NCBI GenBank assembly: GCA_049515135.1 | Contig: JBEKUJ010000017.1 | Coordinates: forward strand, 7,332 to 71,331 | DNA length: 64,000 nucleotides | DNA from: Spirochaetia bacterium | GTDB taxonomy: Bacteria; Spirochaetota; Spirochaetia; SZUA-6; Fen-1364 | Direction: 5' to 3' | Shown: in pieces, positions 37,535 to 59,212 of the stretch | Layout of the letters: the number at the start of each line of letters is the position of its first letter | Numbering within the stretch: the first letter of the stretch is position 1 | Program-made: the position numbers and the translations under genes | The notes under the pieces: generated by a model | Database searches by the model: none | Told to the model about the DNA's origin: nothing | What the model saw: only the letters and a program-made list of their open reading frames with translations

Positions 37535-38960
37535 GCGCACAGGCCCGTCCACCTCCTCGGGACGCAGACGGGACCAGATGGACGCATGGACCTCCCGGGC
37601 CATTGATGCGAACGACTTCGCCGAATATCGCAACGGGATCATGCACGACTGGCTGCGCACGCTCACGCCCCTGGCGGTGGTCCTGGTTCCCATTTTCTTC
37701 ATCCTCGATTACTTCATGATGCCCTCCGGCCTGCTCCCCCGCTTCGCCGTCTACAGGCTCATCTCCACCGCGCTGGCCCTGGCGCAGTTCCTGATTGTGC
37801 GAAACACGCCGCCCAGCCGATGGTCCTACCTGCATGGCTATTTCATTTCCCTGCAGGTCGGTGGGATCATCGCCCTCATGACGGTGGACCTCGGAGGGTT
37901 CAACTCCACCTATTACGCGGGGCTGATCCTGGTGATCATCGGCGTCAATCTCCTGATGCCCTGGCGCGCAACGCACACTGCCGTCAACGCCATCGCCATC
38001 ATGGCCGCGTACATAGCCTTCAACATGATCGCCGGCAAGCCCTTCGACCAGGCAAAGCTGACGAACAACCTCTTCTTCCTGGCATCCACTGCGGTCCTGG
38101 CCGTGAGCATCAACCACGTCCGCTACAACCTGATCGAGAAGGAGTTCTCCCTCCTTGTGAAGCTGAAAAAGGCCCGTGACGCGCTCTGGGGGGAGATGGA
38201 GCTTGCCAAGAGGATCCAGACCGCACTCCTCCCGCAAAGGAAAGGCGGCATTCGGGGCTTCGAGAGCGCCGTCACCTTGCTGCCGGCAAAGGAAGTGGGA
38301 GGAGACTACTACGACATCATAGAGACGGATTCCGGGGACAGGTGGGTGGCAATCGGGGATGTGGCCGGCCATGGCGTGGATTCCGGCCTGATCATGATGA
38401 TGGCGCAGGCAAGCGTCATGACTGTCATCAAGGGCAACCCGGCCGCCAAGCCACTCGACGTGCTGTCCACCACCAACAGCGTCATCAAGGAGGATATCGG
38501 CCGGCTGGGCTCCAACCACTACATGACCATGATGGTGGTCAAGCTGGAAGACAGCTGCATGATGGTTGCAGGTCACCATCAGGACGTGCTGGTGTACAGA
38601 TCTTCCCTGGGCTCGGTGACGGCCATTCCCACGAAGGGGACCTGGCTTGGCATCACGGACCAGATCGAGTCATTCATGGAAGTCAAGACCATCGATATCG
38701 ATGACAATGACGTTGCGCTCTTTTTCACGGACGGAGTCACCGAAGGCACCAACAGCTCCGGGGAGATGTACGGCCAGGAGCGCCTGCAGCGGGTGTTCGC
38801 GCAAAGCGCCGACCTTCCGGTGGAAAAGACGCTGGAGCGGATCCTCGATGACGTGCGGGCCTTCCAGGCCGACCAGGAGGACGACATGACCCTGATCCTG
38901 CTGAAAAAGATACCGCAGGAGACCGGCAAGAAGACGGCGCATGAGGGAGGCGGCGCATGA
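37521..38960 (+). CDS. Membrane-anchored (multi-TM) PP2C/SpoIIE-type Ser/Thr phosphatase (SiaA/RsbU-like)
   Basis: At least six hydrophobic helices, then SpoIIE/PP2C motifs (LPAKEVGGDYYDI, AIGDVAGHGVDSGLIM, FFTDGVTE). RBS AGGAAGG before ATG 37521. Overlaps the previous gene by 14 nt. Confidence 0.75.
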   Translation: MPKAERTGPSTSSGRRRDQMDAWTSRAIDANDFAEYRNGIMHDWLRTLTPLAVVLVPIFFILDYFMMPSGLLPRFAVYRLISTALALAQFLIVRNTPPSRWSYLHGYFISLQVGGIIALMTVDLGGFNSTYYAGLILVIIGVNLLMPWRATHTAVNAIAIMAAYIAFNMIAGKPFDQAKLTNNLFFLASTAVLAVSINHVRYNLIEKEFSLLVKLKKARDALWGEMELAKRIQTALLPQRKGGIRGFESAVTLLPAKEVGGDYYDIIETDSGDRWVAIGDVAGHGVDSGLIMMMAQASVMTVIKGNPAAKPLDVLSTTNSVIKEDIGRLGSNHYMTMMVVKLEDSCMMVAGHHQDVLVYRSSLGSVTAIPTKGTWLGITDQIESFMEVKTIDIDDNDVALFFTDGVTEGTNSSGEMYGQERLQRVFAQSADLPVEKTLERILDDVRAFQADQEDDMTLILLKKIPQETGKKTAHEGGGA

Positions 38961-39337
38961 GACCCATGAGGGAGGAACGCACGCATCTCATCTATCGGCT
39001 GCGCGTGTTCGACGCGAAGAGCGGCAAGCTGCTGGGGCACATGACGGACATTACTCCAGAAGGCATGATGCTCATCGGTGAAAAGGCCGTGAAGCCGAAG
39101 AAGGAGTTCTCCCTCCGCATGGACCTCCCCCGCAACGTTATGGAGGACAGACACCTGACCTTCGCTGCCGTGAGCAAGTGGTGCCGCAAGGACGCAAGCG
39201 GAGACTACTACAGCATGGGCTTCCAGATTCAGTCCATAAGCCCTGAGGGCCTGGCCGTGGTCCGCACTCTCATCCGCGACTTCTTCCGGGAGGAGCTGGA
39301 GGGAGACTCCGTCACTGACCTGAACCCGGTGCTGTGA
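38957..39337 (+). CDS. PilZ-domain protein (putative c-di-GMP receptor)
   Basis: 126 aa. N-terminal R-rich REERTHLIYRLRV and D.(S/T)..G element DITPEGMML. ATGA overlap with the phosphatase stop. Confidence 0.5.
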   Translation: MRPMREERTHLIYRLRVFDAKSGKLLGHMTDITPEGMMLIGEKAVKPKKEFSLRMDLPRNVMEDRHLTFAAVSKWCRKDASGDYYSMGFQIQSISPEGLAVVRTLIRDFFREELEGDSVTDLNPVL

Positions 39338-39380: not shown

Positions 39381-40334
39381 TCACTCCCTGGGATAGCGGT
39401 ACTCGTTCCCGTCCGGGCCGAGCAGGACATACGCGTCCTGTTCAGTGCGCACAAGGGACGACTCCACCGGGGCTTTTCCGCCTCCCCCGGGAAGATCGAC
39501 AGCATACGTGGGGATGGCGATGCCCGAAAGTCGGGACCGGAGCTCTTTCATCAGTGCGATGCCTTTCTCCAGGGGAACTCGAAAATGCGCCGTGCCTGAG
39601 GCAAGGTCGCCCTGAAAAAGGTAGTACGGCTTGACTCCCGCCCTCACCAGACCGCGAAAGAGCGCCTCCAGGGTGACAGCGTCGTCATTGACGCTGCGCA
39701 GGAGCACGGCCTGGTTCAACACCGGCACCCCCGCCGTGATGAGCCTGCGAACGGCCTGACGGAACTCATCCGTGAGCTCCCGCGGATGGTTGGCATGGAT
39801 CACGGCCCACACGACGCCCGGTTTTCCCAGCATGCCGGCAAGGTCAGCGGTGATTCGCGCAGGATGGACCACGGGGATCCGCGTGCACACGCGGAGAATG
39901 TACGAGGGATCGACCTGCAGGAGGCGGTGGATGATGCGCTCCAGGTCCTGGTCTGACAGCATCAGCGGGTCCCCGCCCGAAAGCAGGACCTCGTGCACCG
40001 ATGGATTGCGAGCCAGGTAGCCGCAGGCAGCTTCGAGCTGCTCAGGGGTGATCTGGCCGCCGCCGTGGCCCGTGAAGTGCCTGCGGAAGCAGTGCCGGCA
40101 GTACGTAGCGCACCGGTCGCTCACCAGGAGCAGGGCCCGGTCCGCGTAATGATGGATGAGCCTGTCGGTGACCAGATAGCGGGAATCTCCGATGGGATCC
40201 GGGGACTCATAAGGGAGGGTTGTCTGCTCCGCGTCGCGGGGAACGTACTGGGCGGCAATGGGGTCCTTGTCGGGATCCTTCGAACGGGCAAGTCCTGCAT
40301 AGTAGCGGCTGACGCCGAAGGGAAGGCGGGTCAC
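39381..40334 (-). CDS. KamA-family radical SAM protein (lysine 2,3-aminomutase / EpmB-like)
   Basis: CATYCRHCFRRHF (C...C..C) and KamA-family flanking motifs. 317 aa, i.e. the short EpmB-like length. Confidence 0.75.
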   Translation of the reverse strand: MTRLPFGVSRYYAGLARSKDPDKDPIAAQYVPRDAEQTTLPYESPDPIGDSRYLVTDRLIHHYADRALLLVSDRCATYCRHCFRRHFTGHGGGQITPEQLEAACGYLARNPSVHEVLLSGGDPLMLSDQDLERIIHRLLQVDPSYILRVCTRIPVVHPARITADLAGMLGKPGVVWAVIHANHPRELTDEFRQAVRRLITAGVPVLNQAVLLRSVNDDAVTLEALFRGLVRAGVKPYYLFQGDLASGTAHFRVPLEKGIALMKELRSRLSGIAIPTYAVDLPGGGGKAPVESSLVRTEQDAYVLLGPDGNEYRYPRE

Positions 40335-40358: not shown

Positions 40359-40832
40359 CTACAGTTCAATCTTCCTGGTCAGGTATTCCGTGTAATCCCG
40401 TCTGATGGGCTCATACGGCGCTTCCATGAGCTGGGACGAGATGAGGAAGTCCGCGGTGGAGCGGTTGCAGGCGGCCGGAATGTTGTACAGCACCGAAATG
40501 CGAAGCAGCGCCTTCACATCGACGTCATGGGGCTGCGGCTCCATGGGGTCCCAGAAAAAGATCAGCACATCGATCTTTCCGTCCACGATCATTGCGCCCA
40601 GCTGCTGGTCCCCCCCGAACGGCCCGGACTTCAGCTTGATAATGGTGGGCCCCTGCTCCGAGGTGCCGCGCGTGCGGCTGGAGAGCGTTTCCTCCACCAG
40701 CCTCCCGGTGGTCCCCGTGCAGATCAGCTGGTGGCCGAGGAGCAGCTTCCAGTTCCAGTTCACCCATTCGACGAGGTCTTTCTTGCAGTTGTCGTGCGCG
40801 ACAAGCGCAATGTTTTTGCTTGTCTCCATCAC
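40359..40832 (-). CDS. mgsA: Methylglyoxal synthase
   Basis: IALVAHDNCKKDL, ICTGTTG, GPFGGDQQLGAMI, LIFFWDPMEPQPHDVDVKALLR are classic MgsA motifs. Confidence 0.85.
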   Translation of the reverse strand: MMETSKNIALVAHDNCKKDLVEWVNWNWKLLLGHQLICTGTTGRLVEETLSSRTRGTSEQGPTIIKLKSGPFGGDQQLGAMIVDGKIDVLIFFWDPMEPQPHDVDVKALLRISVLYNIPAACNRSTADFLISSQLMEAPYEPIRRDYTEYLTRKIEL

Positions 40833-41236
40833 CGCAGCCCATGCTCATTGAAGCATGCCTGGTAGCGCTTGTCGGTCCCCATGATGTGGTTCTGCAGCCA
40901 CCCCCTGAGGAAGTTCAGGATCTCAATGGTGAGAATGAAGCTGGCCCGGTCCGCTCTTGCCTGCAGCTCGAGGGCCTTTGCGGTGAACTTCTGGTGCTCC
41001 AGCCTGTGGGCCTCGTAGCCCTTGTAGCTGAATGCCTGCATGTAGCGCTCGTCTGTGGCAAAGTGGGTCGCCGCGTAGCCCACCATTGCGTCTATCGTTG
41101 CCTTCTGCGCCTCCCTCCCCTTGCGCGCAAGCATGGCTTCGTTCAGGGAGTTGATCATTTCAATGAGCTTGCGATGCTCGTCATCGATTTTACGCACGTT
41201 CACGCTCAGCTCTGTGGACCATTCGAAATATGCCAT
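40829..41236 (-). CDS. Hemerythrin-like metal-binding (bacteriohemerythrin) protein
   Basis: 135 aa. N-terminal FEWSTELSVNVRKIDDEHRKLIEMIN and His/Glu ligand pattern (HF..DE, H..EH, H). Confidence 0.75.
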   Translation of the reverse strand: MAYFEWSTELSVNVRKIDDEHRKLIEMINSLNEAMLARKGREAQKATIDAMVGYAATHFATDERYMQAFSYKGYEAHRLEHQKFTAKALELQARADRASFILTIEILNFLRGWLQNHIMGTDKRYQACFNEHGLR

Positions 41237-41263: not shown

Positions 41264-44251
41264 TCACGCGGTCCGATTTAGCGCGAGGCTCCACGCGGTA
41301 AATTTCCTATTGAGATTTTTCAAGGTCAGCCCTGTCGTGTCCTCAAGGAGCCAGTGAGCGTCTTGAAGGCCGGCGCCGATCCCCACGGCGAACATGCGCG
41401 CATCGATGATCGCCTGAATCCCTGCCTGGGAGTCCTCGATGCCCGAGCAGTTTTCGAAAGGCACACCCAGACTCTCCGCGGCTCGGAAGAAGATCTCTGG
41501 ATCGGGCTTTCCCTTGACCACGGCCGCAGGGTCCACGACGTGGTCCACCACTCCTTCGATGCCCAGCCGGCGCACCACCTCCCACACGTTGTGGCTGACC
41601 GATGCGACGGCCATCTTGATGCCTGCTTCCTTGAGACGGGCAAAAAGGTCCCCCATCCCCGGCAGCAGGTCTCCCGGCGTGACCCCGCCGATGAGCTCCC
41701 GGTAATATCCGTTTTTTCTTTCGGCAAGCCTCAGCTTCTCCGCGGGCGGGAAGCTGGCCCCCGACTCTGTCAGGATGATCTCCAGGCTCTCGTTCCTGCT
41801 CACGCCCTTCAGCCGCTCGTTGACCTTCCTGTCGAAGCTGATCCCCAGCTCGTTGCAGAGGCGCTTCCAGGCGCGGAAGTGCAGCTCTGCCGTGGAAGCG
41901 AGGACCCCGTCCAGGTCGAAGATGACGCATTCGAGGGCGGGAGCAAGGGTGCATGAGACCGCGGACCCCCGCGACACCACGATCTCCCTGCCTCGATGGA
42001 CAACCGCCAGCGGATCGCCATCCAGCACGTCGTAGGCCGCTTTCTCATGAGTGATGGTTATCGCAAGGGACCTCCCTTTGTACTGGAGCCTGAAAGCAAG
42101 GCTTTTCCAGCGCGAAGGGAGCCGCGGGGAGAAGGAGAGCGCGCCAACCCTGTCGCGCATGCCTGCAAAGCCATAGAGGAGCGATATCCAGGTCCCCGCC
42201 ATGGCCGCCATGTGCACGCCGTCTGCGACGTTTCCGTTCACGTCGTCCAGGTCCATGCGCGCCGTGCGCGAGAAATATCGGTATGCCTCTTCGGTATAGC
42301 CCAGCTCCGCCGCGGCCACACTCTGGATGCACGGGGACAGCGACGAGTCCCCCGTTGTCAGCCTGTTGTAGTAGTCGAAGTTGCGCTTCTTGTCCGCGGC
42401 GGAAAACTTCTCACCCAACAGGACCTGTGCCAGGACGACATCGGGCTGCTTCAGGACCTGGAAGCGGTAGATGACCAGCGGATGATAATGGAGCAGAAGG
42501 GGGTAGTTTTCCCGGGGAGTATTCTGCAAATCCCAGCGCGCGCGGGTGAGGAAAAGGTCGTCCTGCGCATGGATGCCTTTGTCGCGATTGTAGGGGATGC
42601 GCATCCGCCGCGCGGCTTCCTTCCAGCCCTGCACTTCCTCGGGAAGCAGGGAAAGGGTGGAAGCGATCCGGCGGTACTGTTCGGGTGAGCGTGCGGCCAG
42701 CTCGTCGGAGAGGTCTGCAGCGAACAGGAGGTGCTCCTGCGCCATGAGGTTCGTGTAGAGGTTGTTGTTCACAAGGGCGCTGTACTCGTCGGGGCCCGTC
42801 ACCTCGTTGATGCAGAAATCTCCGTTCATCTCCGGGATGAAATCCCCCAGGTCCGCCCACAGACGGGCGGTCTCGAAAACCATCTCGGCTCCCCCTTCCA
42901 GGAGGATGGCGCGATCACCCGTGGCGTCCACGTATTTCTTCAGGGCGTACACGATGTCGGCATTGATGTGGTACTGAGCGGTGCCGGCGGGATAATAGGG
43001 TGATGTCTCCTCGCCTCCTATGGTCCGCCACGGGTAGAGCGCGCCCCTCTGGCTCATCTCGGCGGCGCGGGTCCTTGCCTTGTCCAGGAGCCGTATCCTG
43101 TACTGCGCCAGTGAGCGGGCAATGTCAGGAGAGGTGTAGACAAAGAAGGGGAGCACGTAGATCTCGGTGTCCCAGAAGTAGTGCCCTTCGTAGCCCTCGC
43201 CGCTCAACCCCTTTGCCGCAACGCTTGTGCGGCCGTCCCGTCCGGCTGACTGGAGGAGGCTCCATATATTGAAGCGCAGCCCCTGCTGCAGGCTGTCGTC
43301 TCCTTCGATTCGCACGTCAGCCCGCTCCCAGAACGACTTGAGGTAGCCTGCCTGCTCCGCGCAGAGCGTCTCGAATCCGGCCCGCATGGCTTTGTCCACC
43401 GCGTCAGCCGCCCGGCCCTGAGCCTCGGAAGCAGGGCATTCCAGCGATGTGCAGTACCCGATGTACTTGACGAGGCGGACGGACTGTCCGCCGCGCCGCG
43501 CGGCATCGACGCGCAGGGTGGCGCTCTCGGCACCCATGTCCATACGCTCTTTGCCGCCCCCCGAAGCCAGGTCGTGATCGACTACGCAGGCAAGGGTGAG
43601 CTTCGTATTCCTGGTCTGCTGGACCAGCGCGGCGCGTCGCCCCGTGCCCTCCACGTGGATGGTCTGGAGCGGCCTCTCGTGAAAGTGAGCCCCCACCCGC
43701 GGGTCTGCGCCAGCCGCCTGGTTGGAAACGCCTCCGTCGACAGCCGACTCCAGCCGAGCGGCGCCCTCGAAACTGGCAATGACGTACTCGATTGCCGCGA
43801 CATGCCGGCGGGTGAGGGAGACGAGCCTGCGGACAGTGAGATCGATTCGGCGCCCTGCCGGGGATCTCCAGCTGAGGGTCCGAACCAGGACGCCCTCCCT
43901 CAGGTCCAGGCGGCGTTCATAGGACAGCAGCCAACCCGAGGAGAGATCCAGCGGCTCGTCGTCCACGAAGAGGCGGATGACCTTTGCGTCCGCAACGTTC
44001 AGCATGACCTGCCGGTTCCTGGCATACCCGTAGGCTGTCTCGCCGTACACGATGGGGGTCTCTTCGAAAAAACCGTTGATGTACGTTCCCGTGACCCCGA
44101 CGCACCGGCCCTCCTCCAGGTTCCCGCGCATGCCGAGATGGCCGTTGCCCAGCGCGAAGATCGTCTCATTGCGCGCCGCCAGGGAAGGATCGAATGAGGT
44201 CTCCCGTATCTTCCATGCGTCTGACGGATAAATCTCCTTCCGGACCGCCAT
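41264..44251 (-). CDS. Glycoside hydrolase family 65 disaccharide phosphorylase fused to a C-terminal beta-phosphoglucomutase (HAD) domain
   Basis: 995 aa. GH65 N-terminus (ETSFDPSLAARNETIFALGNGHLGMRGNLEEG). C-terminal beta-PGM (CVIFDLDGVLASTAELHFRAWKRL...LKGVSRNESL... VGIG). Confidence 0.8.
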   Translation of the reverse strand: MAVRKEIYPSDAWKIRETSFDPSLAARNETIFALGNGHLGMRGNLEEGRCVGVTGTYINGFFEETPIVYGETAYGYARNRQVMLNVADAKVIRLFVDDEPLDLSSGWLLSYERRLDLREGVLVRTLSWRSPAGRRIDLTVRRLVSLTRRHVAAIEYVIASFEGAARLESAVDGGVSNQAAGADPRVGAHFHERPLQTIHVEGTGRRAALVQQTRNTKLTLACVVDHDLASGGGKERMDMGAESATLRVDAARRGGQSVRLVKYIGYCTSLECPASEAQGRAADAVDKAMRAGFETLCAEQAGYLKSFWERADVRIEGDDSLQQGLRFNIWSLLQSAGRDGRTSVAAKGLSGEGYEGHYFWDTEIYVLPFFVYTSPDIARSLAQYRIRLLDKARTRAAEMSQRGALYPWRTIGGEETSPYYPAGTAQYHINADIVYALKKYVDATGDRAILLEGGAEMVFETARLWADLGDFIPEMNGDFCINEVTGPDEYSALVNNNLYTNLMAQEHLLFAADLSDELAARSPEQYRRIASTLSLLPEEVQGWKEAARRMRIPYNRDKGIHAQDDLFLTRARWDLQNTPRENYPLLLHYHPLVIYRFQVLKQPDVVLAQVLLGEKFSAADKKRNFDYYNRLTTGDSSLSPCIQSVAAAELGYTEEAYRYFSRTARMDLDDVNGNVADGVHMAAMAGTWISLLYGFAGMRDRVGALSFSPRLPSRWKSLAFRLQYKGRSLAITITHEKAAYDVLDGDPLAVVHRGREIVVSRGSAVSCTLAPALECVIFDLDGVLASTAELHFRAWKRLCNELGISFDRKVNERLKGVSRNESLEIILTESGASFPPAEKLRLAERKNGYYRELIGGVTPGDLLPGMGDLFARLKEAGIKMAVASVSHNVWEVVRRLGIEGVVDHVVDPAAVVKGKPDPEIFFRAAESLGVPFENCSGIEDSQAGIQAIIDARMFAVGIGAGLQDAHWLLEDTTGLTLKNLNRKFTAWSLALNRTA

Positions 44252-44263
44252 GAGCTTCTCCGT

Positions 44264-45283
44264 CTACAGGGGCCTGCAGCTGTCTCGCACCGCAAGCAGC
44301 ATGGGCAGCGGGGGGGCTGGCTCGAGGGCCGCATGGCCTCGAAGAACGCCGATGAGCAGCCGCGCCGCCTCTGCGCCCAGGCTCGGCGCGGGGTTCGTGA
44401 CGGTGGTGAGGGGAGGATTGACATACCGGGAGGGAAGGTCGTCATCGAAACCGACAATGGAGATGTCGGCCGGTATTCCAAGCCCTGCGTCCTTGATGGC
44501 CTGCATGGCCCCATAGGCAACGACGTCGTTGCCCGCGAACACCGCGGTGGGCCGTTTTTCCTCCGTGAGGATTTCCACCATGGCTTTGTACCCGCTCTCC
44601 TCAGTCAGATCTGCGCTGCGCACCCACCCTTTTCGCACGACGCATCCGGCGCTTTCCAGCGCGGCCCGGTAGCCTTCGAATCGGTCCCGCGCCGCATAGT
44701 ACGAGCTGGGAGCGTGAAGGATCATCGCGACGTCTCGATGGCCGAGGGACACCAGGTACTCCACCGCGCTACGCGCCGCTGACCGGTTGTCGATGTCGAT
44801 CTGCAGCACGTCGGGGTGGGAAATGGTGCCGATCACGACAAGAGGAAAGCGGGCCGTTATCAGCTCGGCAAGTCCCTTGTCGTCGTCATGCGTGTTCATG
44901 AGGATGATGCCGTCCACGCTGTCCTGCCGCGCGCGCGACATGTAGTCCTTCTCCTGGAGCTTCAAGGGCTGCAGGACGAGCTGGAACCGGTTCTTGTTCA
45001 GCACCGGAGTCATCCCTTCGATCACGCGTATGATATAGGCATCGGAGGAGATGTATCCCGCGTGAGGGATGAAAAAGCCGATGGAGTGATGCTTGATCAT
45101 GGCCACGTCACGGGCTTTTTCATTGGGAACAAAGCCCAGCTCTCGTGCCGCCTCCAGCACCTTCCGCCGGGTCCCGTCAGGGATGTTCTTCCCTGGAGTA
45201 TTGTTCAGCACGAATGAGACCGTTGTGCGTGATACGCCGGCCCTGTTTGCAACGTCTGCGGATGTCGCTTTTCGTTCCGCCAT
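44264..45283 (-). CDS. LacI-family transcriptional regulator
   Basis: ATG 45283 preceded by GGAGTGAGG. HTH TSADVANRAGVSRTTVSFVLNN. Periplasmic-binding-fold C-terminus. Confidence 0.8.
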   Translation of the reverse strand: MAERKATSADVANRAGVSRTTVSFVLNNTPGKNIPDGTRRKVLEAARELGFVPNEKARDVAMIKHHSIGFFIPHAGYISSDAYIIRVIEGMTPVLNKNRFQLVLQPLKLQEKDYMSRARQDSVDGIILMNTHDDDKGLAELITARFPLVVIGTISHPDVLQIDIDNRSAARSAVEYLVSLGHRDVAMILHAPSSYYAARDRFEGYRAALESAGCVVRKGWVRSADLTEESGYKAMVEILTEEKRPTAVFAGNDVVAYGAMQAIKDAGLGIPADISIVGFDDDLPSRYVNPPLTTVTNPAPSLGAEAARLLIGVLRGHAALEPAPPLPMLLAVRDSCRPL

Positions 45284-45378
45284 CGCTTTGACCTCACTCC
45301 TGCCGGGGGCCACGTATTTTCGGCGAGTTACTAACACAGAATAGCATGAGTCCGCGCAAGGTTCAAGGGCGTTTTCAC

Positions 45379-45392
45379 GTTGCTGATGCAAC
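45379..45392. promoter_or_regulatory. Inverted repeat GTTGC-tgat-GCAAC in the LacI/GH38 divergent region; candidate LacI-family operator
   Basis: Seen at 45379-45392, about 75 nt upstream of the GH38 start. Confidence 0.2.
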
Positions 45393-45467
45393 TACTCCAT
45401 GTTAAGATCGAAGCGGACCCATTTCGAGCAGGTTGATGCCCACACATCCGGGAGGGTCACTCTTTCC

Positions 45468-48317
45468 ATGAGCCTTTCTTACTGGTTTATTCCTCACACC
45501 CACTGGGACAGAGAATGGTACCTTTCCTTCCAGGACTTCCGGTTCAAGCTCGTGGCCAGCATCGATGCAATCATCGACACCCTCCAACGGCAACCGGACT
45601 TCAAGCATTTCATGCTCGACGGTCAGACAATCGTCCTGGAGGACTACCTCGAGCTGCGGCCCGAGCGCCGTCAGGAGCTGGAGGACCTGATCCAGGCAGG
45701 AAGAATCGCCGTGGGCCCCTGGTATGTGCAGCCCGACGATCTGCTCGTCACCGGCGAAGCCCTGGTCCGTAACCTTGAGCGGGGACTGCGGACGGCCCGT
45801 GCGTCCGGTGGGGTCATGTCAGTGGGATACCTTCCTGACAGCTTCGGTCATTGTTCGGGGCTGCCGTCCATCCTTCAGGGCTTCGGCATCGAGTCCGCCT
45901 CCCTCATGCGCGGGGCCGGCCCGGAGCTCGACAAGACGTTCTTCGGCTGGAGCGCCCGCAGCGGATCCCGTGTGCTTGTCGCCTACCTCATCGACAGCTA
46001 TGGCAACGGCGCCGACCTCGTGATGGAGCCGGAAGCGCTGCGGGAGGGACTTGCGGCGCTGTTGGAGCGTCAGCAGGGTGCGCTGCTCCCCGAAGTGCCG
46101 CTCCTTGTCATGAACGGCATGGACCACCGGTCCATAGCAGCGGACCTTCCGCGGACGCTCAAGGAATCCGGCCTCGGGGACCGTGCCCGCATCGGCCCCC
46201 TGGACCGCTACATCGAAGCCGGCAAGGGCATCTCCGGCATTCCGGAATGGAAAGGAGAGCTGCGGTCGTGCTGGAGGTTTCCCATCATAGTCGGCTGCAC
46301 ATCGTCGCGCCGGTGGATCAAGAAGGAAGACCAGGCGATCTCTTCCCTTCTGGAGCGGGAGGCAGAGCCTCTGTCCGCCCTGGCCTCGTGGCTCGGGGCG
46401 CAGTATCAGAGAGTAGCCATCGACCTGGCGTGGAAGCATCTCCTCCAGAACCAGCCCCACGATTCGATCTGCGGGTGCTCCATCGATGAAGTTCACGAGG
46501 ACATGAGATTCCGTTACGCGCAGGCCCGAGGCTTGGGGGAGAATGTTGCGGCTCAGGCAGCCGCTGCAATCGCAGCACAGGTCGATTCTTCCTTCGCCGG
46601 CAGCGGAGAAACAGTTGCCGTGGCGGTGAACCCCGGACCTTCCCGAAGCGCCGCCCTCCTGTCCTTCCCGGCGGAAAACCTGCCTGTCGACCCCGTCCTG
46701 GTTGACGCCGAAGGCCGGCGCCACCCCGTGCAACTCCTCTCTGAAGAGGGGGGAAGCGCCGTATTCTTCGACGAGCATTTCACCACCAGGCAGCTGAAGT
46801 TCGTCATGGGCATGGTCAAGGAAGGGAAGCTGCTGGAGTTCAGCGTTACGGACGCAAGAGCATCCTGGGAAAGTCAGTCCGTGCTCCGCATTGACCTGCA
46901 GCTGGTGGAGCGCGGCTATTCCCGGTTCGACTGGAATGCCTGGGTGCGCGAAACTTTGCCTCTCCTGGAAACACGCGGCCTCACCCACGTGCATGCCGTG
47001 GGCCTGCGCTCGGGAAGAAAGACGGCCCTCTTTGCCGCCGATCTCCCCTCCTTCGGCGCAAAGGCATTCGCCCTCGCGGGCGGCGGTGCCGCCGGGGGTC
47101 CGGCACTTCATGCAGGCCGACGTATCCTGGAGAATCAACGCTACCGGATCCGCCTTCTCAGGGACGGAAGCCTCGAAGTCCTGGACAGGAAGCTCGGTCT
47201 GCGCTTGAGCGGCGTCAACAGGATAGTGGACGACGGCGACCGTGGGGACGAGTACAACTACGACGCCATCCCCGGGGATCGGGCCATCAACGCGCCGTAC
47301 CTTCGTTTCCCCGCGATGCGCAGGATCCGCGCGGATGTCGTGGAATCAGGGCCGGTTCGGGCAACCCTTCGCATCCGGGCAGGGTATCGGCTCCCGGCAT
47401 CGATCGGAGGAGACCGCGCCTTACGGGCGCGCCCGAAAGTGAACGTCGAGGTGGTCCGCTTCGTGAGCCTCACCCAGTCGGGAGACCGGATCGAGTTCCG
47501 CACTGAAATAGAGAACCAGGCCCGGGACCACCGCATGCGCGTGCATTTCCCGTTTCCCGAGGAATCGAAAGAGAGCCTTGCGGGCGGAACGTTCGAAGCA
47601 GTCACACGGCCTGCGCGTCCGGTCCCGTTGCCGCATGGCTTGCAGAGGCCCATCTCCCCCGAGCTGGGCGAGGAGCAGCCCGCCTCAACGCATCCCTTCA
47701 CCGGTTTTGTCGCCTGCGCCGCGGGAGCTTTCACGGTGGGCTTGCTGGCGCGCGGCATCCGCGAATACGAAGTTCTCCCGGGGGGGCGCTGGATTGCGCT
47801 CACCCTGTTCCGCTCTGTCGGCTGGCTTTCGCGGGCCGACCTTGCGTCCCGCAAGGCCAACGCCGGCCCCGACATCCCGACCCCGAACGCCCAGGAGATC
47901 GGCAGGCAGGTGTTCGAGTACTCCCTGCTCCCGTCCGGCGGCGCTCCTGATGAGACGCTCCTGAGCCGGGAATGGGAGGACTACCGAGTGACTCCCCAGG
48001 TCCTGCTGCGCTTTGCCGGGCCGGGGCGCCTCCGAAACGGCGCAAGTCTCCTTGAGATTTCCGACCGGACGCTGATCTTCAGCTCCCTCAGGCGCACGCC
48101 AGGAGGGGCCTTTTCGGTCCGGCTCTTCGATACCGGAGGAACAGAGCGCACCGCCTCCATCAGGTTCGGCCTGCCGGTCACCTGGGCAAGGAAAACGAGG
48201 ATCGACGGGACGTCTATCCGTGAGCTTTCCGTCCAGAGTGAGGACACAGGCGCGGTGGCCGAGGTTCCTGTCGATCCATGGGAGATCATCACAGTGGAGT
48301 TCGGAGGAAACACATGA
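45468..48317 (+). CDS. Glycoside hydrolase family 38 alpha-mannosidase (MngB/mannosylglycerate-hydrolase-like)
   Basis: N-terminal YWFIPHTHWDREW (GH38 H.H.D..W signature), about 950 aa. ATG 45468 with GGGAGGG upstream. Confidence 0.8.
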   Translation: MSLSYWFIPHTHWDREWYLSFQDFRFKLVASIDAIIDTLQRQPDFKHFMLDGQTIVLEDYLELRPERRQELEDLIQAGRIAVGPWYVQPDDLLVTGEALVRNLERGLRTARASGGVMSVGYLPDSFGHCSGLPSILQGFGIESASLMRGAGPELDKTFFGWSARSGSRVLVAYLIDSYGNGADLVMEPEALREGLAALLERQQGALLPEVPLLVMNGMDHRSIAADLPRTLKESGLGDRARIGPLDRYIEAGKGISGIPEWKGELRSCWRFPIIVGCTSSRRWIKKEDQAISSLLEREAEPLSALASWLGAQYQRVAIDLAWKHLLQNQPHDSICGCSIDEVHEDMRFRYAQARGLGENVAAQAAAAIAAQVDSSFAGSGETVAVAVNPGPSRSAALLSFPAENLPVDPVLVDAEGRRHPVQLLSEEGGSAVFFDEHFTTRQLKFVMGMVKEGKLLEFSVTDARASWESQSVLRIDLQLVERGYSRFDWNAWVRETLPLLETRGLTHVHAVGLRSGRKTALFAADLPSFGAKAFALAGGGAAGGPALHAGRRILENQRYRIRLLRDGSLEVLDRKLGLRLSGVNRIVDDGDRGDEYNYDAIPGDRAINAPYLRFPAMRRIRADVVESGPVRATLRIRAGYRLPASIGGDRALRARPKVNVEVVRFVSLTQSGDRIEFRTEIENQARDHRMRVHFPFPEESKESLAGGTFEAVTRPARPVPLPHGLQRPISPELGEEQPASTHPFTGFVACAAGAFTVGLLARGIREYEVLPGGRWIALTLFRSVGWLSRADLASRKANAGPDIPTPNAQEIGRQVFEYSLLPSGGAPDETLLSREWEDYRVTPQVLLRFAGPGRLRNGASLLEISDRTLIFSSLRRTPGGAFSVRLFDTGGTERTASIRFGLPVTWARKTRIDGTSIRELSVQSEDTGAVAEVPVDPWEIITVEFGGNT

Positions 48318-49747
48318 GCGGAACACCGGAGAAACTGCCCACCTGGAAGCTCGGCATCTTCGCCCTTGGCCAGCTGGGATGGTCTCTTGCCTCCTACGGA
48401 GTGAGCAACCTTGTCATGTATTTCTACATGCCGCCGGAGACGGCCGCCGCCCAGCGGATTTTCCCCCCGTTCATCTTCGAGGGAGTTTTGATCGGAATAT
48501 TCACCATCATAGGGATCATCAACTTCGGCGCGCGGTTTTTCGACGCGGTGAGCAACCCGCTCCTTGCGTCGTGGTCCGACAGGTCCCGCGCAAAGATAGG
48601 GCGGCGCAGGTTTTTCCTTGCAGTAAGCTTCGCTCCTTTCGCTTTGTTTTCCGTTCTGGTGTTCCTCCCGCTCAGGCATTTCACGTCCAACCCCAGCCCG
48701 CACGCCAGCTTGTTGAACACTGCATGGCTTGCGGTGACGATCCTCCTTTTCTACTTCTTCTATGTGATGTACACGGCGCCCTACAACGCCCTGATCAGCG
48801 AGCTGGGCCACAATCCCAAGGAGCGCCTTTTCATCAGCACCGCCATCGGGATCACGTGGTCCCTCGGATTCGCGGTGGGGAATTTCGTCTACGACTTCCA
48901 GACAATGTTCGAGCACACGGGGATGAGCTCCACCAGGGCCTTCCAGACAGTGGAGGCGATTTTCGGCGTCCTTTCCCTCATCCTCATGGCGTTGCCGGTA
49001 ATCATCATCGATGAGAAGCGCTACGCGGCGTATTCGGTCTCCGACGAAGGCACTTTCCAGGCTCTTGGCTCCTCACTTCGCAACAAGAACTTCGCCCGGT
49101 TCCTGGTCTCGGAGCTCCTGTACAACATCTGCCAGACAGTCATCCAGATGGGGATCGTGTATTACGTGGTCACCCTCCTGCGCCTGGACAAGGAGATCAC
49201 TTCATTTCTCATGATGGTGATGTTCATCCTCTCGTTCATCTTCTACCCCGTGATCACAGCGTCTGCCGTGCGCTGGGAAAAGAAGAGGGTGATTCTGATC
49301 GGCTTCGGGCTTCTTGCCTTTCTCTTTGTGCTGTTCTCCTTCATGGGCGTTCTCCCCGTGTCCGGCCTGGTGTACGCCTATATCACGGTGGTCTTTGCCG
49401 CGCTGCCCATCGCCATCTTCACCATCGTTCCCAACGCCGTAGTGGCCGACATAGCCGAGGCTGACGGGATAGAGACGGGGAACTTCAAGGCAGGGATGTT
49501 CTTCGGCGTGCGCTCATTCGAAACGAACCTGGGGATCTCGATTGCGAATATCCTCTTCCCGTGGATGCTCACCCTGGGGATGTCCGTCGAACATCCCTTC
49601 GGCATCCGCATGAGCGCGGTCGTGTCGGTGGCGGTGTGCGTTGCCGGATTGCTCGTCTTCCTTCTCTACGATGAGAAAGCGGTGCTTCGCAGCCTGGCCA
49701 AGAAGGAGAAGCTTTCCGCGCGTGAGACGGAGGGGCTCAAAGCGTGA
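48314..49747 (+). CDS. Glycoside-pentoside-hexuronide (GPH)/MFS-type sugar:cation symporter
   Basis: 12 predicted TM helices. ATG 48314 overlaps the GH38 stop (ATGA). Confidence 0.75.
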   Translation: MSGTPEKLPTWKLGIFALGQLGWSLASYGVSNLVMYFYMPPETAAAQRIFPPFIFEGVLIGIFTIIGIINFGARFFDAVSNPLLASWSDRSRAKIGRRRFFLAVSFAPFALFSVLVFLPLRHFTSNPSPHASLLNTAWLAVTILLFYFFYVMYTAPYNALISELGHNPKERLFISTAIGITWSLGFAVGNFVYDFQTMFEHTGMSSTRAFQTVEAIFGVLSLILMALPVIIIDEKRYAAYSVSDEGTFQALGSSLRNKNFARFLVSELLYNICQTVIQMGIVYYVVTLLRLDKEITSFLMMVMFILSFIFYPVITASAVRWEKKRVILIGFGLLAFLFVLFSFMGVLPVSGLVYAYITVVFAALPIAIFTIVPNAVVADIAEADGIETGNFKAGMFFGVRSFETNLGISIANILFPWMLTLGMSVEHPFGIRMSAVVSVAVCVAGLLVFLLYDEKAVLRSLAKKEKLSARETEGLKA

Positions 49748-49754
49748 AGGAAAA

Positions 49755-49778
49755 GCCTCCGCCCGGGCGGGCGGAGGC
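49755..49778 (-). terminator. GC-rich hairpin (GCCTCCGCCCG..CGGGCGGAGGC) followed on the minus strand by TTTTCC; likely terminator of the minus-strand ABC transporter operon, possibly bidirectional
   Basis: 11-bp perfect arms at 49755-49778, in the gap between the convergent MFS stop (49747) and the solute-binding-protein stop (49797). Confidence 0.4.
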
Positions 49779-50851: not shown

Positions 50852-51880
50852 TCAACTTGTTCCTGGACGGTCGGGGACCGCCCACTTGCGCACGGCGCGC
50901 GAAAGCACCGAAACCCCTCCTTCACTGATGACGATGTTGAGGATGACGGATGCGGCCATGACGAGCCCTTCAACCAGCTGCACCCAGTATCCTCCCACCC
51001 CCGTGGCCACTACCCCGGCTTCCAGCGAGCCGATGATATAGGCGCCGAAGACGGTGCCGACAACCACCCCGTTGCCGCCCGCAATGGAGGTTCCGCCGAT
51101 GAACACGGCGGCCATGACGGGAAGCAGGAAACCCCCGCCTTGCGTGGGGTAGAAGACGTTTATCTCGGAGGTGAGAATGAGCCCCGCGAAGCCGGCAATG
51201 AGGCCCATCAATGTGAAGAGCGCCACCCGGGTGGACTCCACGTTGATCCCCATGACCCGTGCCACCTCGGCATTGTCGCCGATGAACATGATGGCTTCCC
51301 CGAATTTGTGCCGGTTGAGAATGAACCACATCACAACGGCAAGCCCGACTGCCCAGAGGGCCTGCGTGGGCATCACCCCGAAAAGCCGGCCGGTGAAGAT
51401 GGTATGCGCGAGGCTAGGAATCACTGCGGCAATATCGAGCTGCAAGCCACCGGCCAGCAGGATGGTGACGCCATACCAGAAGAACTGCGTGGCAAGGGTG
51501 GCCATAATAGAAGGGACCCGCACGCGCGCCACCAGCAATCCGTTGATGTAGCCCACCAGCCCGCCACCAGCCAACCCGGCCAGGAACCCGAACCAGGGCG
51601 GCAGGCCATGCTTGAACGACCACGCGAAAAGAAAGCCTGACAGCGCCACGATGGCCGGAAAGCTCAGGTCTATCTCCCCCGCCGTGATCACCAGAGTGAG
51701 ACCGAGGGCCAGGACGAGCTGGGGCGGCACTGTCTGGAAGAAAGACATGTAGATGCGGTACCCAAGGAAGACCTGGGGGGTGAGAATAATGAACACCAGG
51801 TAGAGTACGGCGAGGACCATAGCGATGGGCAGCCCTTCGATCTTTGCTACACCTGAGAAAAACGAGCTCCCCTTCTTCAT
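50852..51880 (-). CDS. Sugar ABC transporter permease (BPD_transp_2, RbsC-like)
   Basis: About 10 TM helices; RbsC/XylH-like conserved loop region. Confidence 0.8.
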   Translation of the reverse strand: MKKGSSFFSGVAKIEGLPIAMVLAVLYLVFIILTPQVFLGYRIYMSFFQTVPPQLVLALGLTLVITAGEIDLSFPAIVALSGFLFAWSFKHGLPPWFGFLAGLAGGGLVGYINGLLVARVRVPSIMATLATQFFWYGVTILLAGGLQLDIAAVIPSLAHTIFTGRLFGVMPTQALWAVGLAVVMWFILNRHKFGEAIMFIGDNAEVARVMGINVESTRVALFTLMGLIAGFAGLILTSEINVFYPTQGGGFLLPVMAAVFIGGTSIAGGNGVVVGTVFGAYIIGSLEAGVVATGVGGYWVQLVEGLVMAASVILNIVISEGGVSVLSRAVRKWAVPDRPGTS

Positions 51881-52680
51881 GACTTTTCCTTGTCCTTCAA
51901 TCCATGAGCGTACTCGAGGAGGAACTCGTCCAGCGCCTTCAGCGAAATATCCTTCTTGGCAATGCTGGCTACAACTTCCCCCCTGTCCATGATGATGAAC
52001 CGGTCGGAGATCTCGTACACGTCCTGGATGTCGTGGGAAATGTAGACGCTGGCCTTGCCAGCCTCCTTGATCTTGTGGACGAAGTTGAGGACTTTTCGTA
52101 CTTCCTTCAGGGAAAGTGCGACAGTGGGCTCGTCAAGGATGATGAGATCAGCCTCGAAATGCATTGCCCGGCCAATGGCCACCCCCTGCCTCTCCCCGCC
52201 GGAGAGCTTGCTTGCCCGGGAGTCCACCGTGATCCCCTTTCCTCGGAACCCGATGGTGGTCAGCATGATCTCCTGTGCAATCTCTTTCTCCCGCTTCACG
52301 TTGATGAACCCGAACGGGAGGGTGATTTCTCTTCCAATGAAGAAGTTGCGCCACAAGGCCTGTTTTTCGCCCAGTGACTTGTCCTGGTAGACAGTTTCGA
52401 TGCCGTGGGCGTGGGCGCTGAGGACCGAGTAGGCCCTCCAGTCGACCTTTCGGCCTGCAATGGAAAGCTCACCGCGGGTGGGGGGGAAGACGCCAGTGAG
52501 GATCTTTACAAGGGTAGATTTGCCTGCCCCGTTGTCGCCGATGAGCCCCACGATTTCGTTTTTTCCGACCTCGAGGTTGACGTTCTTTAAAGCACAGACG
52601 AGCCCGAAATACTTCTCAACTCCGACCATACTGAGAGCCAGGGGTTCTCCGGCACTTCCATGGGACGTTGAGGCGGCCAT
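51877..52680 (-). CDS. ABC transporter ATP-binding protein, single nucleotide-binding domain
   Basis: Walker A GDNGAGKST, signature LSGGERQGVAI, Walker B LIILDEPTVALS. Start ATG 52680 or 52629. The 270-aa N-terminal extension in the ORF track is rejected as non-ATPase-like. Confidence 0.7.
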   Translation of the reverse strand: MAASTSHGSAGEPLALSMVGVEKYFGLVCALKNVNLEVGKNEIVGLIGDNGAGKSTLVKILTGVFPPTRGELSIAGRKVDWRAYSVLSAHAHGIETVYQDKSLGEKQALWRNFFIGREITLPFGFINVKREKEIAQEIMLTTIGFRGKGITVDSRASKLSGGERQGVAIGRAMHFEADLIILDEPTVALSLKEVRKVLNFVHKIKEAGKASVYISHDIQDVYEISDRFIIMDRGEVVASIAKKDISLKALDEFLLEYAHGLKDKEKS

Positions 52681-52738
52681 CAAGGGGGCGCCAGTATCGC
52701 CGAAAACATCGGGCACGACAGAACCTCCTCTGGATGAT

Positions 52739-52883
52739 GGTACAGCTTGTACCTTTTTTGCTGTAGCCGCAGAGTAGCATGGTTCTGGACCGAAATCAAC
52801 AAAAAAATCGGCTGAAATTGGTACTATTTTATTGCATAACACTGGGAGAACAGATAAAATACAACTTGTACCAACAGGTAAAC
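52739..52883. promoter_or_regulatory. Divergent control region with GTAC-core inverted repeats (GGTACA-gct-TGTACC at 52739-52753; TTGTACC-aaca-GGTAAAC at 52866-52883); candidate AraR/GntR-type operators
   Basis: Repeats seen directly. They resemble the B. subtilis AraR box core (TTGTAC/GTACAA), from established knowledge. Lies between the ABC ATPase start and the GntR-PBP regulator start (52891). Confidence 0.3.
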
Positions 52884-52890
52884 AATATTC

Positions 52891-53994
52891 ATGAAGAAGC
52901 ACGAGCTGGTTGGGTCGTGGATCCGAAAGAACATCATTGAAAACAAGTTCGCTCCCGGAGAAAAGCTTCCTTCGGAAAGCGAGCTCTGCGCCCAGTTCGG
53001 CGTTTCGCGAAACGCGGTGCGCCAGGCGATCCGGGACCTCGCCCAGGAAGGGTGGGTGCAGACCGCTCGGGGGGTCGGGACTTTCTGCCGCTCCCGCGTT
53101 CCAGCAACCCAGCTGACCACGAACATCGCTTTCGTTGCCTTTTTTGCAAGCTCGTACATTTTTCCGGAAATCATCCGCGGATGCGACCATGTCCTGTATT
53201 CCCGGGGCTTCAACCTCATCCTCAACCAATCCGAGTACGACCTTGACAAAGAGAGAAGCATCCTCCTCTCCCTGAGAAAGAAGCGCGTGGACGGGATCAT
53301 CATAGCCCCGGTGTATGACGGGAAGGACCGCTCGAACGCTGGCCTGCTGGAAGAGATGCAGGCGGAGGGCACAGCCATCGTGTTGTGCGACAGTACGTTC
53401 CTGGACAGGAGGTTCAGCTTCGTAGCCCTGGATGACCTTGCAGGCGGCGCCGCTGCCGCGTCGCACCTCTGGGACCGCGGCCATCGGAAGATCGGAGTTT
53501 TCTTCCAGGACGACTACATGGTCAAGATCAGAAGGATGGAAGGCGTGTACGGCTTTCTTGAGCGGAAAACTTCATCCGTGCGCAATGACTGGATCGTCAG
53601 GTTCAGGGGCCAGGGGCCCGCAAGCGAGGCGCCTGCAGCGGCGGAGCGTTTCTTCCGCGCCGCCTCCGACCTTCCCACTGCTTTTGTCTGCTCCAGTGAC
53701 GAGGATGCGCTGCATCTCATCCAGGCAGCGGAAAAGTACAACGTGCGCGTTCCGCGGGACCTGTCGGTCGTCGGGTTCGACAATTCCAGCGTTGCCCAGC
53801 TGGAGCGCGTCTCCCTCTCCTCGGTGGATCATCCAGGGTTCTCCATGGGTGAGATCATGACCAACATCCTGCTGGAGAAGATATTTCACCCCGAGATACG
53901 ACTGGTCACGCGTACCCTCATCTCCCCGTCCATCATAGAGCGGTCTTCCGTGCGGAGTCTTGTGGACGGGACTGACCAGGCCATCAGCCCTTGA
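52891..53994 (+). CDS. GntR-family regulator with C-terminal periplasmic-binding-protein sugar-sensor domain (AraR-like architecture)
   Basis: N-terminal GntR wHTH (SESELCAQFGVSRNAVRQAIRDLAQEGWV) plus C-terminal LacI/GalR-type ligand domain (GIIIAPV...VVGFDNS). Confidence 0.8.
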   Translation: MKKHELVGSWIRKNIIENKFAPGEKLPSESELCAQFGVSRNAVRQAIRDLAQEGWVQTARGVGTFCRSRVPATQLTTNIAFVAFFASSYIFPEIIRGCDHVLYSRGFNLILNQSEYDLDKERSILLSLRKKRVDGIIIAPVYDGKDRSNAGLLEEMQAEGTAIVLCDSTFLDRRFSFVALDDLAGGAAAASHLWDRGHRKIGVFFQDDYMVKIRRMEGVYGFLERKTSSVRNDWIVRFRGQGPASEAPAAAERFFRAASDLPTAFVCSSDEDALHLIQAAEKYNVRVPRDLSVVGFDNSSVAQLERVSLSSVDHPGFSMGEIMTNILLEKIFHPEIRLVTRTLISPSIIERSSVRSLVDGTDQAISP

Positions 53995-54826: not shown

Positions 54827-54829
54827 GCG

Positions 54830-55705: not shown

Positions 55706-55863
55706 ATCGGGCTCCTGTCTGTCAATCTTCTGCGGAACAAAAAAAGGCCGCGGGAACGGCGGTGAACCCCGCGCCCGCGTGCCGGATTGAGCCAAGAAAC
55801 GGCGCGATCGACGATTGTCACCCGACCGCGCCGGAAAAGCAACCCCTCGAAGGGTATGCCCTG

Positions 55864-59206: not shown

Positions 59207-59212
59207 AACGGT

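Follow-up and report, generated by a model that had tools for sequence, protein, structure and literature searches.

Does a gene that sets a GH65 glycoside phosphorylase and a beta-phosphoglucomutase in one reading frame encode a real bifunctional protein, on which sugar would it act, and do the carbohydrate genes around it belong to the same pathway? These questions are raised by a 64,000-nucleotide stretch of DNA from a Spirochaetia bacterium (GenBank assembly GCA_049515135.1, contig JBEKUJ010000017.1, forward-strand positions 7,332 to 71,331; hereafter the window, numbered from its first letter). Here a 995-amino acid (aa) fusion protein is encoded next to a LacI-family repressor, a GH38 alpha-mannosidase and a GPH-type symporter (Table 1), and a first-pass annotation of the sequence had read all four genes as one glycoside locus. 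We find that the fusion is natural and common, that its GH65 half is probably a trehalose phosphorylase (TP), and that the repressor, rather than the mannosidase-symporter pair, is its conserved partner.

The fusion gene is a single unbroken frame. Residues 16-759 match the Pfam families Glyco_hydro_65N, 65m and 65C (PF03636, 209 bits; PF03632, 376.8 bits; PF03633, 70.1 bits; each exceeding its cutoff) and residues 774-955 match HAD/HAD_2, with a linker of about 11-14 residues in between. PDB matches to the first 760 residues include kojibiose phosphorylase (3WIQ, 8e-111) and maltose phosphorylase (1H54, 1e-106), and those to the last 220 residues are beta-phosphoglucomutases with E-values from 3e-55 (3NAS) to 5e-43. 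The first-pass claim that two activities share one 995-aa polypeptide was borne out, the domains being as described and both catalytic sets intact.

Unfused treP-pgmB pairs only 9-50 bp apart exist in other genera, so that a single-base error could mimic a fusion of this kind, and the gene might have been an assembly or frameshift artefact uniting two adjacent genes. The 995-aa length is, however, repeated in at least six assemblies at 90% identity or more. A cluster represented by P0001, which is 99% identical to the window protein, has six members of this length at that identity, drawn from an NCBI metagenome-assembled genome (MGA2615098.1, Spirochaetia bacterium), JGI, ENA and four Logan assemblies. 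Separate domains in close relatives had been named beforehand as grounds for refutation; relatives in the lineage at 85, 79, 78, 75, 69 and 67% identity are all fused in one frame. Linker residues L769, P771 and L773 occupy nearly invariant columns of a family alignment (A1), the FDLDG motif after them is likewise conserved, and dozens of 50%-identity clusters have identical architecture. Given the same length in independent assemblies, the fused lineage relatives and the conserved linker, the 995-aa gene is a genuine natural fusion, and we consider the chance of an artefact negligible.

The C-terminal domain is predicted to be a beta-phosphoglucomutase (EC 5.4.2.6) with its catalytic residues intact. 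It scores 230.5 bits against the equivalog model TIGR01990 (cutoff 189.4) and contains all four HAD motifs, namely DxDG (motif I, the nucleophile/acid motif D779-L-D781-G), Ser (motif II, S884), Lys (motif III, K915) and an acidic pair (motif IV, E939-D940), together with K815-G-V-S-R819. With the exception of K815, the key positions (D779, D781, the cap residues G816 and R819, S884, K915, E939 and D940) are invariant in alignment A1. PgmB of Lactococcus lactis (PDB 1LVH; TIGR01990) has the same HAD fold, DxDG motif and cap residues, likewise an above-cutoff score, and the corresponding role of converting the beta-glucose-1-phosphate (beta-G1P) made by a GH65 phosphorylase; PgmB is a free enzyme of about 220 aa, whereas here the mutase is a domain of a 995-aa protein.

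To characterise the GH65 half, we read window residues from a phmmer alignment to the kojibiose phosphorylase CsKP (3WIQ), at positions named in PMC11442529. In CsKP, W343, D344, K596 and Q597 form the conserved −1 subsite, and K330, S631, S632 and H675 the phosphate site of phosphorylases (PMC11442529). The window protein has W360, D361, K601 and Q602 in the former and K347, S636, S637 and H680 in the latter, with E489 as the catalytic acid. Because E489 and the K347, S636-S637 and H680 set match the phosphate site of CsKP, the GH65 half is predicted to be a phosphorylase and not a hydrolase. The active-site residues of this half are conserved family-wide; of 85 family members aligned with MAFFT, most have KESSH as the catalytic/phosphate set and nine have KESTH.

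Its substrate was approached through published signature positions. At 391/392/417, which line the +1 subsite, kojibiose phosphorylase reads WET, maltose phosphorylase MVI, trehalose phosphorylase WRA and nigerose phosphorylase WEF, and the loop-3 triplet is HNE in maltose, TPK in kojibiose and SAY in trehalose phosphorylase (the Thermoanaerobacter brockii TP) (PMC11442529). The window enzyme has W408-R409-A422, the published TP motif, and S417-P418-Y419 in loop 3 against SAY in T. brockii TP. Across six correlated positions (64, 392, 394, 402, 416 and 585; De Beul et al., PMC8537180), it reads VRIPPP against TRIGPP in the biochemically verified Thermobispora bispora TP (PMC8537180), four of the six being identical with a call at 585 that depends on gap placement. 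The correlation network has its hub at position 392, where Arg is, among characterised specificities, unique to TP (PMC11442529, PMC8537180). In the 85-member alignment, the largest fused group reads exactly WRA, SAY and TRIAPP. From these positions, the GH65 half is probably an inverting alpha,alpha-trehalose phosphorylase of the EC 2.4.1.64 type. Trehalose is therefore the one disaccharide retained from the substrates first proposed, the signatures for kojibiose, nigerose and maltose (WET, WEF and MVI) not being matched. The other suggestions, glucosylglycerate, mannosylglycerate and glucosylglycerol, are unsupported, as the residues at 391/392/417 are the TP set (the aromatic set described for glycerol recognition in glucosylglycerol phosphorylase, PMC11442529, was not compared).

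The known TPs, from T. brockii (TreP), Caldanaerobacter subterraneus (TP) and T. bispora (TbGP), resemble the window enzyme in sequence in their three-domain GH65 architecture, catalytic Glu, Lys/Ser-Ser/His phosphate site, +1 W-R-A, S-x-Y loop, R392, I394 and P416. The window enzyme differs in its C-terminal beta-phosphoglucomutase (TbGP, the one characterised TP for which length was compared, has about 820 aa and is unfused) and in having V rather than T at 64 and P rather than A/G at 402. Two other comparators were set aside. The printed DNA of T. bispora TP (PMC8537180 supplement) contains indels from optical character recognition and gave only tblastn fragments of about 29% identity, with motif stretches read by eye; the Paenibacillus riograndensis enzyme PrGP (unknown specificity, subgroup 9) was rejected as a member of the fused clade, being about 780 aa long, unfused and W-E at 391/392.

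Several points weigh against the trehalose assignment. We hold it as probable and no more because the alignment included no full-length characterised TP and the PDB no TP structure, so that specificity rests on the signature positions; of these, 64 and 402 do not follow the canonical TP motif, the P at 402 is shared with kojibiose phosphorylase, and the assignment of 585 changes with the alignment gap. Nor does a recognisable trehalose transporter adjoin the operon in the window, as against the ABC genes found in Gracilinema and Treponema. The GH65 half could instead belong to a TP-like clade with another natural substrate, a trehalose analogue or other alpha-glucoside, with V82 and P418 marking a shift in specificity. 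Two of the six specificity-correlated positions do differ from verified TPs, the SPY/VRIPPP variant is confined to the window lineage and Chloroflexota (eight VRIPPP and one TRIPPP among the 85 members), and De Beul et al. found clades whose motifs predict no clean specificity (PMC8537180). Set against this are the hub Arg at 392 and the agreement of W/R/A, I394 and P416 with TP; position 402, moreover, varies between A, G, S and P within the clade, even where the motif is otherwise canonical. We judge such a shift unlikely and retain trehalose as the more probable substrate.

If so, the GH65 domain would convert trehalose and inorganic phosphate (Pi) to glucose and beta-G1P, and the tethered mutase would turn beta-G1P into glucose-6-phosphate (G6P), for a net reaction of trehalose + Pi to glucose + G6P without use of ATP. 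The mutase step would pull the near-equilibrium phosphorolysis toward breakdown. A fixed 1:1 stoichiometry, any proximity effects or channelling, this equilibrium pull and the catabolic direction are inferences. An AlphaFold2 monomer model of the fusion (predicted local distance difference test (pLDDT) 80, predicted template modelling score 0.82) weighs neither for nor against channelling. Every segment with pLDDT below 50 (aa 64-81, 346-359, 406-424, 485-489, 582-601 and 633-635) coincides with active-site loops of the GH65 part, and the catalytic acid and phosphate-binding serines are among the residues concerned. The pattern is compatible with a site that needs the dimer or a ligand for its completion, and could alternatively reflect the shallow alignment of 24 sequences.

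The direction of the reaction can also be argued the other way. Both steps are reversible, GH65 phosphorylases have synthetic uses (PMC11442529), the window gene has no trehalose importer next to it and the fusion of Paenibacillus xerothermodurans has housekeeping neighbours only, all of which would suit an enzyme that mainly makes trehalose, as a stress protectant, from glucose and G6P via beta-G1P. Yet the window gene is paired with a LacI-type sugar repressor, and other lineages pair the fusion with ABC importers or with a TonB-dependent receptor and an MFS transporter, arrangements typical of catabolic loci. Cellular Pi and the drain of G6P into glycolysis also favour phosphorolytic breakdown. 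A chiefly synthetic role is, in our estimation, very improbable, and we keep to the catabolic direction.

The first-pass annotation had called such fusions uncommon, which the survey overturned. A scan of GTDB with one genome per species gave more than 597 relatives, the best 80 of which were checked frame by frame, and an exhaustive cluster search covered 1.84 billion 50%-identity representatives, with the best 150 examined. The best 120 clusters at 90% identity are all about 1000 aa long and all have GH65 and HAD Pfam domains, and among the 150 best representatives at 50% identity, 47 have alignments that extend through the mutase domain. Among the 80 species-representative loci, 39 have the C-terminal fusion. 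They span Spirochaetota, Chloroflexota, Paenibacillaceae, Xanthomonadales and Trueperaceae, with Sphaerochaeta, Treponema, Gracilinema, Sediminispirochaeta, Paenibacillus, Cohnella, Saccharibacillus, Pseudoxanthomonas, Rhodanobacter and Rudaea among the fused genera. GH65 and mutase genes are separate on the same strand in 22 loci, the mutase following directly, typically after 9-50 bp, in 15 of these (for example Janthinobacterium, Massilia and Duganella) and a distant HAD gene lying upstream of GH65 in the other seven. In two loci (L024 and L033) the GH65 frame is interrupted and the mutase lies downstream of it, and 17 loci have no mutase. No other arrangement in this GH65 clade is as frequent as the fused one.

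The operons with treP-pgmB (or malP-pgmB), such as those of Oxalobacteraceae (L013, L034 and L041), offer the closest unfused counterpart. Their GH65 is orthologous at about 50% identity and has the same TP motif, the mutase lies immediately downstream and a LacI gene is often near; they differ in having a stop codon and a 9-50 bp spacer where the window has one frame. About 17 further proteins among the 150 best representatives have the reverse order, with HAD N-terminal to GH65 (P0294, P0296, P0303 and P0313 are examples), so the two activities have been joined in both orientations. An upstream HAD gene about 30% identical to the window mutase domain was seen in L044, L048, L060, L061, L062, L067 and L083, and the HAD-upstream sister clade includes Desulfuromonas, Syntrophobacterales and Thermoleophilia. 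A quick neighbour-joining tree calls for five or more switches between the fused and unfused condition, and in it the window lineage adjoins fused genes of Chloroflexota. The fusion is a classic and recurrent one of the Rosetta-stone type, best explained as an old, widespread union of genes that are adjacent and unfused elsewhere in the same clade. The gene is of an ordinary, well-populated and already auto-annotated kind: NCBI names such proteins 'beta-phosphoglucomutase', and JGI names a member of the P0001 cluster 'alpha,alpha-trehalose phosphorylase'. In the literature that could be searched, GH65 and trehalose reviews included, we found no description of a natural GH65-beta-phosphoglucomutase fusion, the matches to 'fusion' being engineered carbohydrate-binding module fusions only.

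Table 1 Features of the fusion locus in window coordinates (RBS, ribosome-binding site).
Feature	Position	Strand	Details and basis
GH65 + beta-phosphoglucomutase fusion gene	41264-44251	minus	995 aa; six-frame open reading frame list, Pfam, NCBIfam
GH65 part, aa 1-762	41966-44251	minus	Alignment to CsKP 3WIQ
Inter-domain linker, aa 763-773, in frame	41933-41965	minus	L769/P771/L773 conserved just ahead of FDLDG motif
Beta-phosphoglucomutase domain, aa 774-987	41291-41932	minus	TIGR01990, PDB matches
LacI-family repressor, 339 aa	44264-45283	minus	Pfam LacI and Peripla_BP_3; first gene of the operon
Bacteriohemerythrin	40829-41236	minus	NCBIfam; RBS ahead of gene
Methylglyoxal synthase	40359-40832	minus	NF003559, 208 bits
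KamA-family radical SAM	39381-40334	minus	TIGR00238, 263 bits
Proposed operator, perfect 9-bp palindrome GTTACTAAC	45327-45335		Extended GAGTTACTAACAC 45325-45337; directly downstream of the lacI-fusion −10
Putative lacI-fusion promoter	45339-45366	minus	−35 TTGAAC (45366-45361), 16-nt spacer, extended −10 TGcTATTCT (45347-45339)
Putative GH38-GPH promoter	45380-45408	plus	TTGCTG, 17 nt, TGtTAAGAT
Earlier candidate operator GTTGCtgatGCAAC (GTTGC-tgat-GCAAC)	45379-45392		Judged a chance palindrome over the GH38 −35 box
Cytoplasmic GH38 alpha-mannosidase, 949 aa	45468-48317	plus	PF01074, PF09261; N-terminal PHTHWDREWY metal motif
Putative GPH/MFS_2 cation symporter, 477 aa	48314-49747	plus	Pfam MFS_2; translationally coupled to GH38
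GC-rich hairpin	49755-49778		Between convergent GPH and ABC substrate-binding-protein genes; T-tail on minus strand

The LacI gene of the first-pass annotation is upheld by Pfam (PF00356, 52.3 bits; PF13377, 126.1 bits). Its longest open reading frame (ORF) runs from 44264 to 45391, with the helix-turn-helix (HTH) starting at aa 46. Based on the position of the HTH, the RBS GGAGTGAGG and the 339-aa orthologues in the relatives at 85% (locus L001) and 75% identity (L085), the conserved start is the ATG at 45283. The stop codon falls 12 bp ahead of the fusion ATG, with GGAGAAG as an RBS between them. Over its full length the window LacI is 56% identical to that of Gracilinema caldarium, with an identical recognition helix (VSRTTVSF), and only 28% identical to a GH38-linked LacI. 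The Gracilinema operon runs substrate-binding protein, two permeases, LacI and fusion, with LacI directly upstream, and a LacI homologue of 40-59% identity precedes the fusion in L004-L006, L011, L012 and L017 as well, among them Treponema, another spirochaete and three Chloroflexota. The closer match to the Gracilinema repressor than to the GH38-linked one, together with these upstream homologues, identifies LacI plus fusion as the conserved unit. A CUT1 ABC transporter in the window (53984-57195) was considered as the orthologue of the Gracilinema ABC genes and rejected, the permeases being 26% identical.

The genes downstream of the fusion follow on the same strand with small gaps and are syntenic in L001, L084, L085, L087 and L002. 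Every relative examined (67-85% identity) has the radical SAM gene after the fusion, whereas hemerythrin and mgsA are each found in some only. The operon probably comprises lacI, the fusion and the hemerythrin, methylglyoxal synthase and KamA-family radical SAM genes. A methylglyoxal synthase beside a Pi-consuming phosphorylase could indicate a link to sugar-phosphate or Pi stress, or may be mere synteny.

The intergenic region shared by lacI and GH38 was examined for a binding site of this repressor. In a three-way alignment of the window, L001 and L085, 25 uninterrupted columns (CGGCGAGTTACTAACACAGAATA and two flanking bases) are invariant while the flanks diverge; this run holds GTTACTAAC and, immediately upstream of the palindrome, the minus-strand extended −10 TGcTATTCT. 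The 9-mer GTTA(G/C)TAAC, with the consensus GCGTTAsTAACGC, also stands right after the −10 box in L004, L011, L012 and L017 (Spirochaetota and Chloroflexota). L012 has TTGCAT-17-TATAGT ahead of its ABC-LacI-fusion operon, followed by two copies, GTTACTAAC and GTTAGTAAC; L017 has TATAAT followed by GTTACTAAa and GTTAGTAAC; and in L004 the 9-mer lies ahead of LacI. In L006, TAACGCGAGTTA is the form ahead of LacI, and the 9-mer itself comes after LacI, at 5073, where it most likely precedes the next operon. Within the 1.59 Mb of fetched DNA the 9-mer has 11 copies, nine of them at these promoters. Two more GTTACTAACGC copies were noted in L050 (Cohnella kolymensis), at 21266 and 22641, 8-10 kb from the fusion gene; these may be other members of the same regulon, or may be chance. 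The form TAACnCGnGTTA, seen in Chloroflexota, was tried as the operator; only half of it is present in the window, and the shared 9-bp core was therefore taken as the candidate site.

From this positional conservation, GTTACTAAC is most likely the operator of the window LacI. Like other LacI/GalR repressors, the protein combines an HTH with a periplasmic-binding-protein fold and has a palindrome over the start of its own operon; LacI/GalR operators are usually even palindromes with a central CG, whereas this one is an odd-centred 9-bp GTTA(G/C)TAAC, which matched no described regulon. The repressor would occupy GTTACTAAC and block its own lacI-fusion operon until a sugar ligand relieves repression. 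Certain observations count against this assignment. The 9-mer occurs once in the window, chance level by itself, and gains weight only from its conserved placement in other loci; in the window the 9-bp core is retained and the GC flanks of the consensus are not; and a consensus promoter scan of 38.9-50 kb returned no site at its stringency. Both promoters are inferred from the three-way conservation, and terminator-like sites in the same scan were at shuffle expectation.

The operator proposed earlier, GTTGC-tgat-GCAAC, did not survive this comparison. It is present, at chance frequency (one palindrome with perfect 5-bp arms and 0-8 nt spacers against 1.6-2.4 expected per 184 bp), and is not conserved, even in L085. 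Of its left arm, the three-way alignment retains no more than TTGC, and this is the apparent −35 box of GH38, with counterparts TTGCAG...TAAGAT in L001 and TTGCGC...TAATAT in L085.

The GH38 gene and the GPH-type transporter are present in the locus as first described. The longest GH38 ORF is 45399-48317; the start is placed at 45468 because P0140 (100% identity) has 949 aa and the start ATGAGCCTTTC, preceded by GGGAGG, is kept in two relatives. The longest transporter ORF is 48278-49747, with a likely start at 48314 that overlaps the GH38 stop as ATGA. GH38 scores 98.5 bits for PF01074 and 57.5 for PF09261, with 23.3 against a cutoff of 25 for the C-terminal domain, and the transporter scores 122.6 bits for Pfam MFS_2 (cutoff 27) and 93.6 for TIGR00792 (below the cutoff of 231).

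The label MngB-like was not upheld. GH38 reaches 419 bits against the MngB equivalog NF007331 (cutoff 1138), mainly through aa 30-398, and the adjacent transporter is MFS_2 and not a phosphotransferase system (PTS). Escherichia coli MngB, which works with the MngA PTS, is likewise a cytoplasmic GH38 enzyme with an N-terminal metal-binding motif; it hydrolyses 2-O-(6-phospho-alpha-mannosyl)-D-glycerate, whereas pairing with a GPH symporter would suggest an unphosphorylated substrate for the window enzyme, which in the PDB is closer to Enterococcus/Streptococcus alpha-mannosidases (3LVT and 2WYH, about 1e-78).

Whether the two modules act together was addressed by tblastn of the window proteins against all 87 fetched loci. 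GH38 and GPH homologues were found only in L001 and L085, and none in the 80 species-representative loci. GH38 homologues at 65, 54 and 49% identity adjoin MFS_2 in three contigs (L088, L089 and L090), all without GH65; two of these contigs also encode a ROK kinase and a SIS protein, with a separate LacI in one of the two. The fusion, conversely, occurs without GH38, GPH or LacI in the relatives at 67-69% identity (L002 and L087), where it is preceded by DUF6600 and hybrid histidine kinase genes. In L001, GH38 is split into two ORFs, of 453 aa (7406-8767) and 503 aa (5890-7401), a frameshift or pseudogene or a long-read assembly error, which suggests that GH38 beside the fusion is not under strong constraint.

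These distributions bear directly on the first-pass reading of one LacI-controlled locus for uptake through GPH and breakdown of alpha-glucosyl and alpha-mannosyl compatible solutes (glucosylglycerate, mannosylglycerate, glucosylglycerol or mannosylglucosylglycerate), with GH38 and GH65 acting on the same compound or on successive products. The genes are adjacent across a shared 184-bp divergent control region, which also makes co-regulation possible and so tells against confining LacI to its own operon. The arrangement is kept in both the 85% and 75% relatives, the best NCBIfam match of GH38 is the mannosylglycerate hydrolase model, and JGI labels some GH38 homologues mannosylglycerate hydrolase. 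That match lies far under its cutoff, however, with no MngA-type PTS nearby; the +1 subsite of GH65 has TP residues; and each module is found elsewhere without the other. Moreover, the position of the conserved palindrome suits repression of the lacI-fusion promoter; the GH38 −35 box is about 45 bp downstream of it, and nothing therefore indicates that this repressor controls GH38-GPH. A single functional locus is accordingly improbable. GH38-GPH is better described, from its distribution, as an independent module, predicted to serve alpha-mannoside uptake and hydrolysis, that neighbours the fusion only in this spirochaete lineage.

The DUF6600 and hybrid histidine kinase genes that directly precede the fusion in L002 and L087 lie at 57500-61189 in the window, separated from it by a sugar-utilisation block of about 13 kb (44.26-57.5 kb) with a CUT1 ABC transporter, a GntR-type regulator, a CUT2 ABC transporter, GPH-GH38 and LacI. 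Either a carbohydrate island was inserted here or the relatives have lost these genes. Within it, the CUT2 ABC ATPase ORF (51877-53484, minus strand, 535 aa) has one ABC domain only, at aa 284-522 (model positions 2-233 of about 500); no Pfam family matches the 283 aa at its N terminus, which overlap a regulator with GntR-HTH and sugar-binding domains (52891-53994, plus strand). In L001 the CUT2 ATPase is two fragments of about 140 aa, and the transporter may be decaying in the lineage. On the other side, a block beside the fusion operon (37521-39337, plus strand) is conserved throughout the lineage, with a SpoIIE-type PP2C phosphatase with a MASE8 sensor, a PilZ-domain protein and small anti-sigma-like (HATPase_c_2) genes; only L001 and L085 have a PAS-GGDEF-EAL gene at a greater distance. 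Scans of the entire window for Rfam families and tRNAs returned no matches.

It is possible, though we advance it tentatively and as less than an even prospect, that GH65 TP-beta-phosphoglucomutase fusions make up a widespread, biochemically undescribed bifunctional class, with both domain orders, arisen or split several times, in which the mutase captures beta-G1P by proximity channelling within the GH65 dimer and which is controlled by an undescribed LacI subgroup recognising GTTA(G/C)TAAC. The current view of GH65 and trehalose metabolism is unchanged, this gene being one of very many alike. The NCBI name 'beta-phosphoglucomutase' for proteins of 1000 aa nevertheless conceals their phosphorylase half, and the LacI partner with its 9-mer provides a testable regulon motif in Spirochaetota and Chloroflexota. 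A single polypeptide that converts trehalose and Pi to glucose and G6P would, if the assignment is true, be a potentially convenient biocatalyst, and the fusion is a clean natural test case for kinetic channelling by the tethering of a phosphorylase to its mutase.

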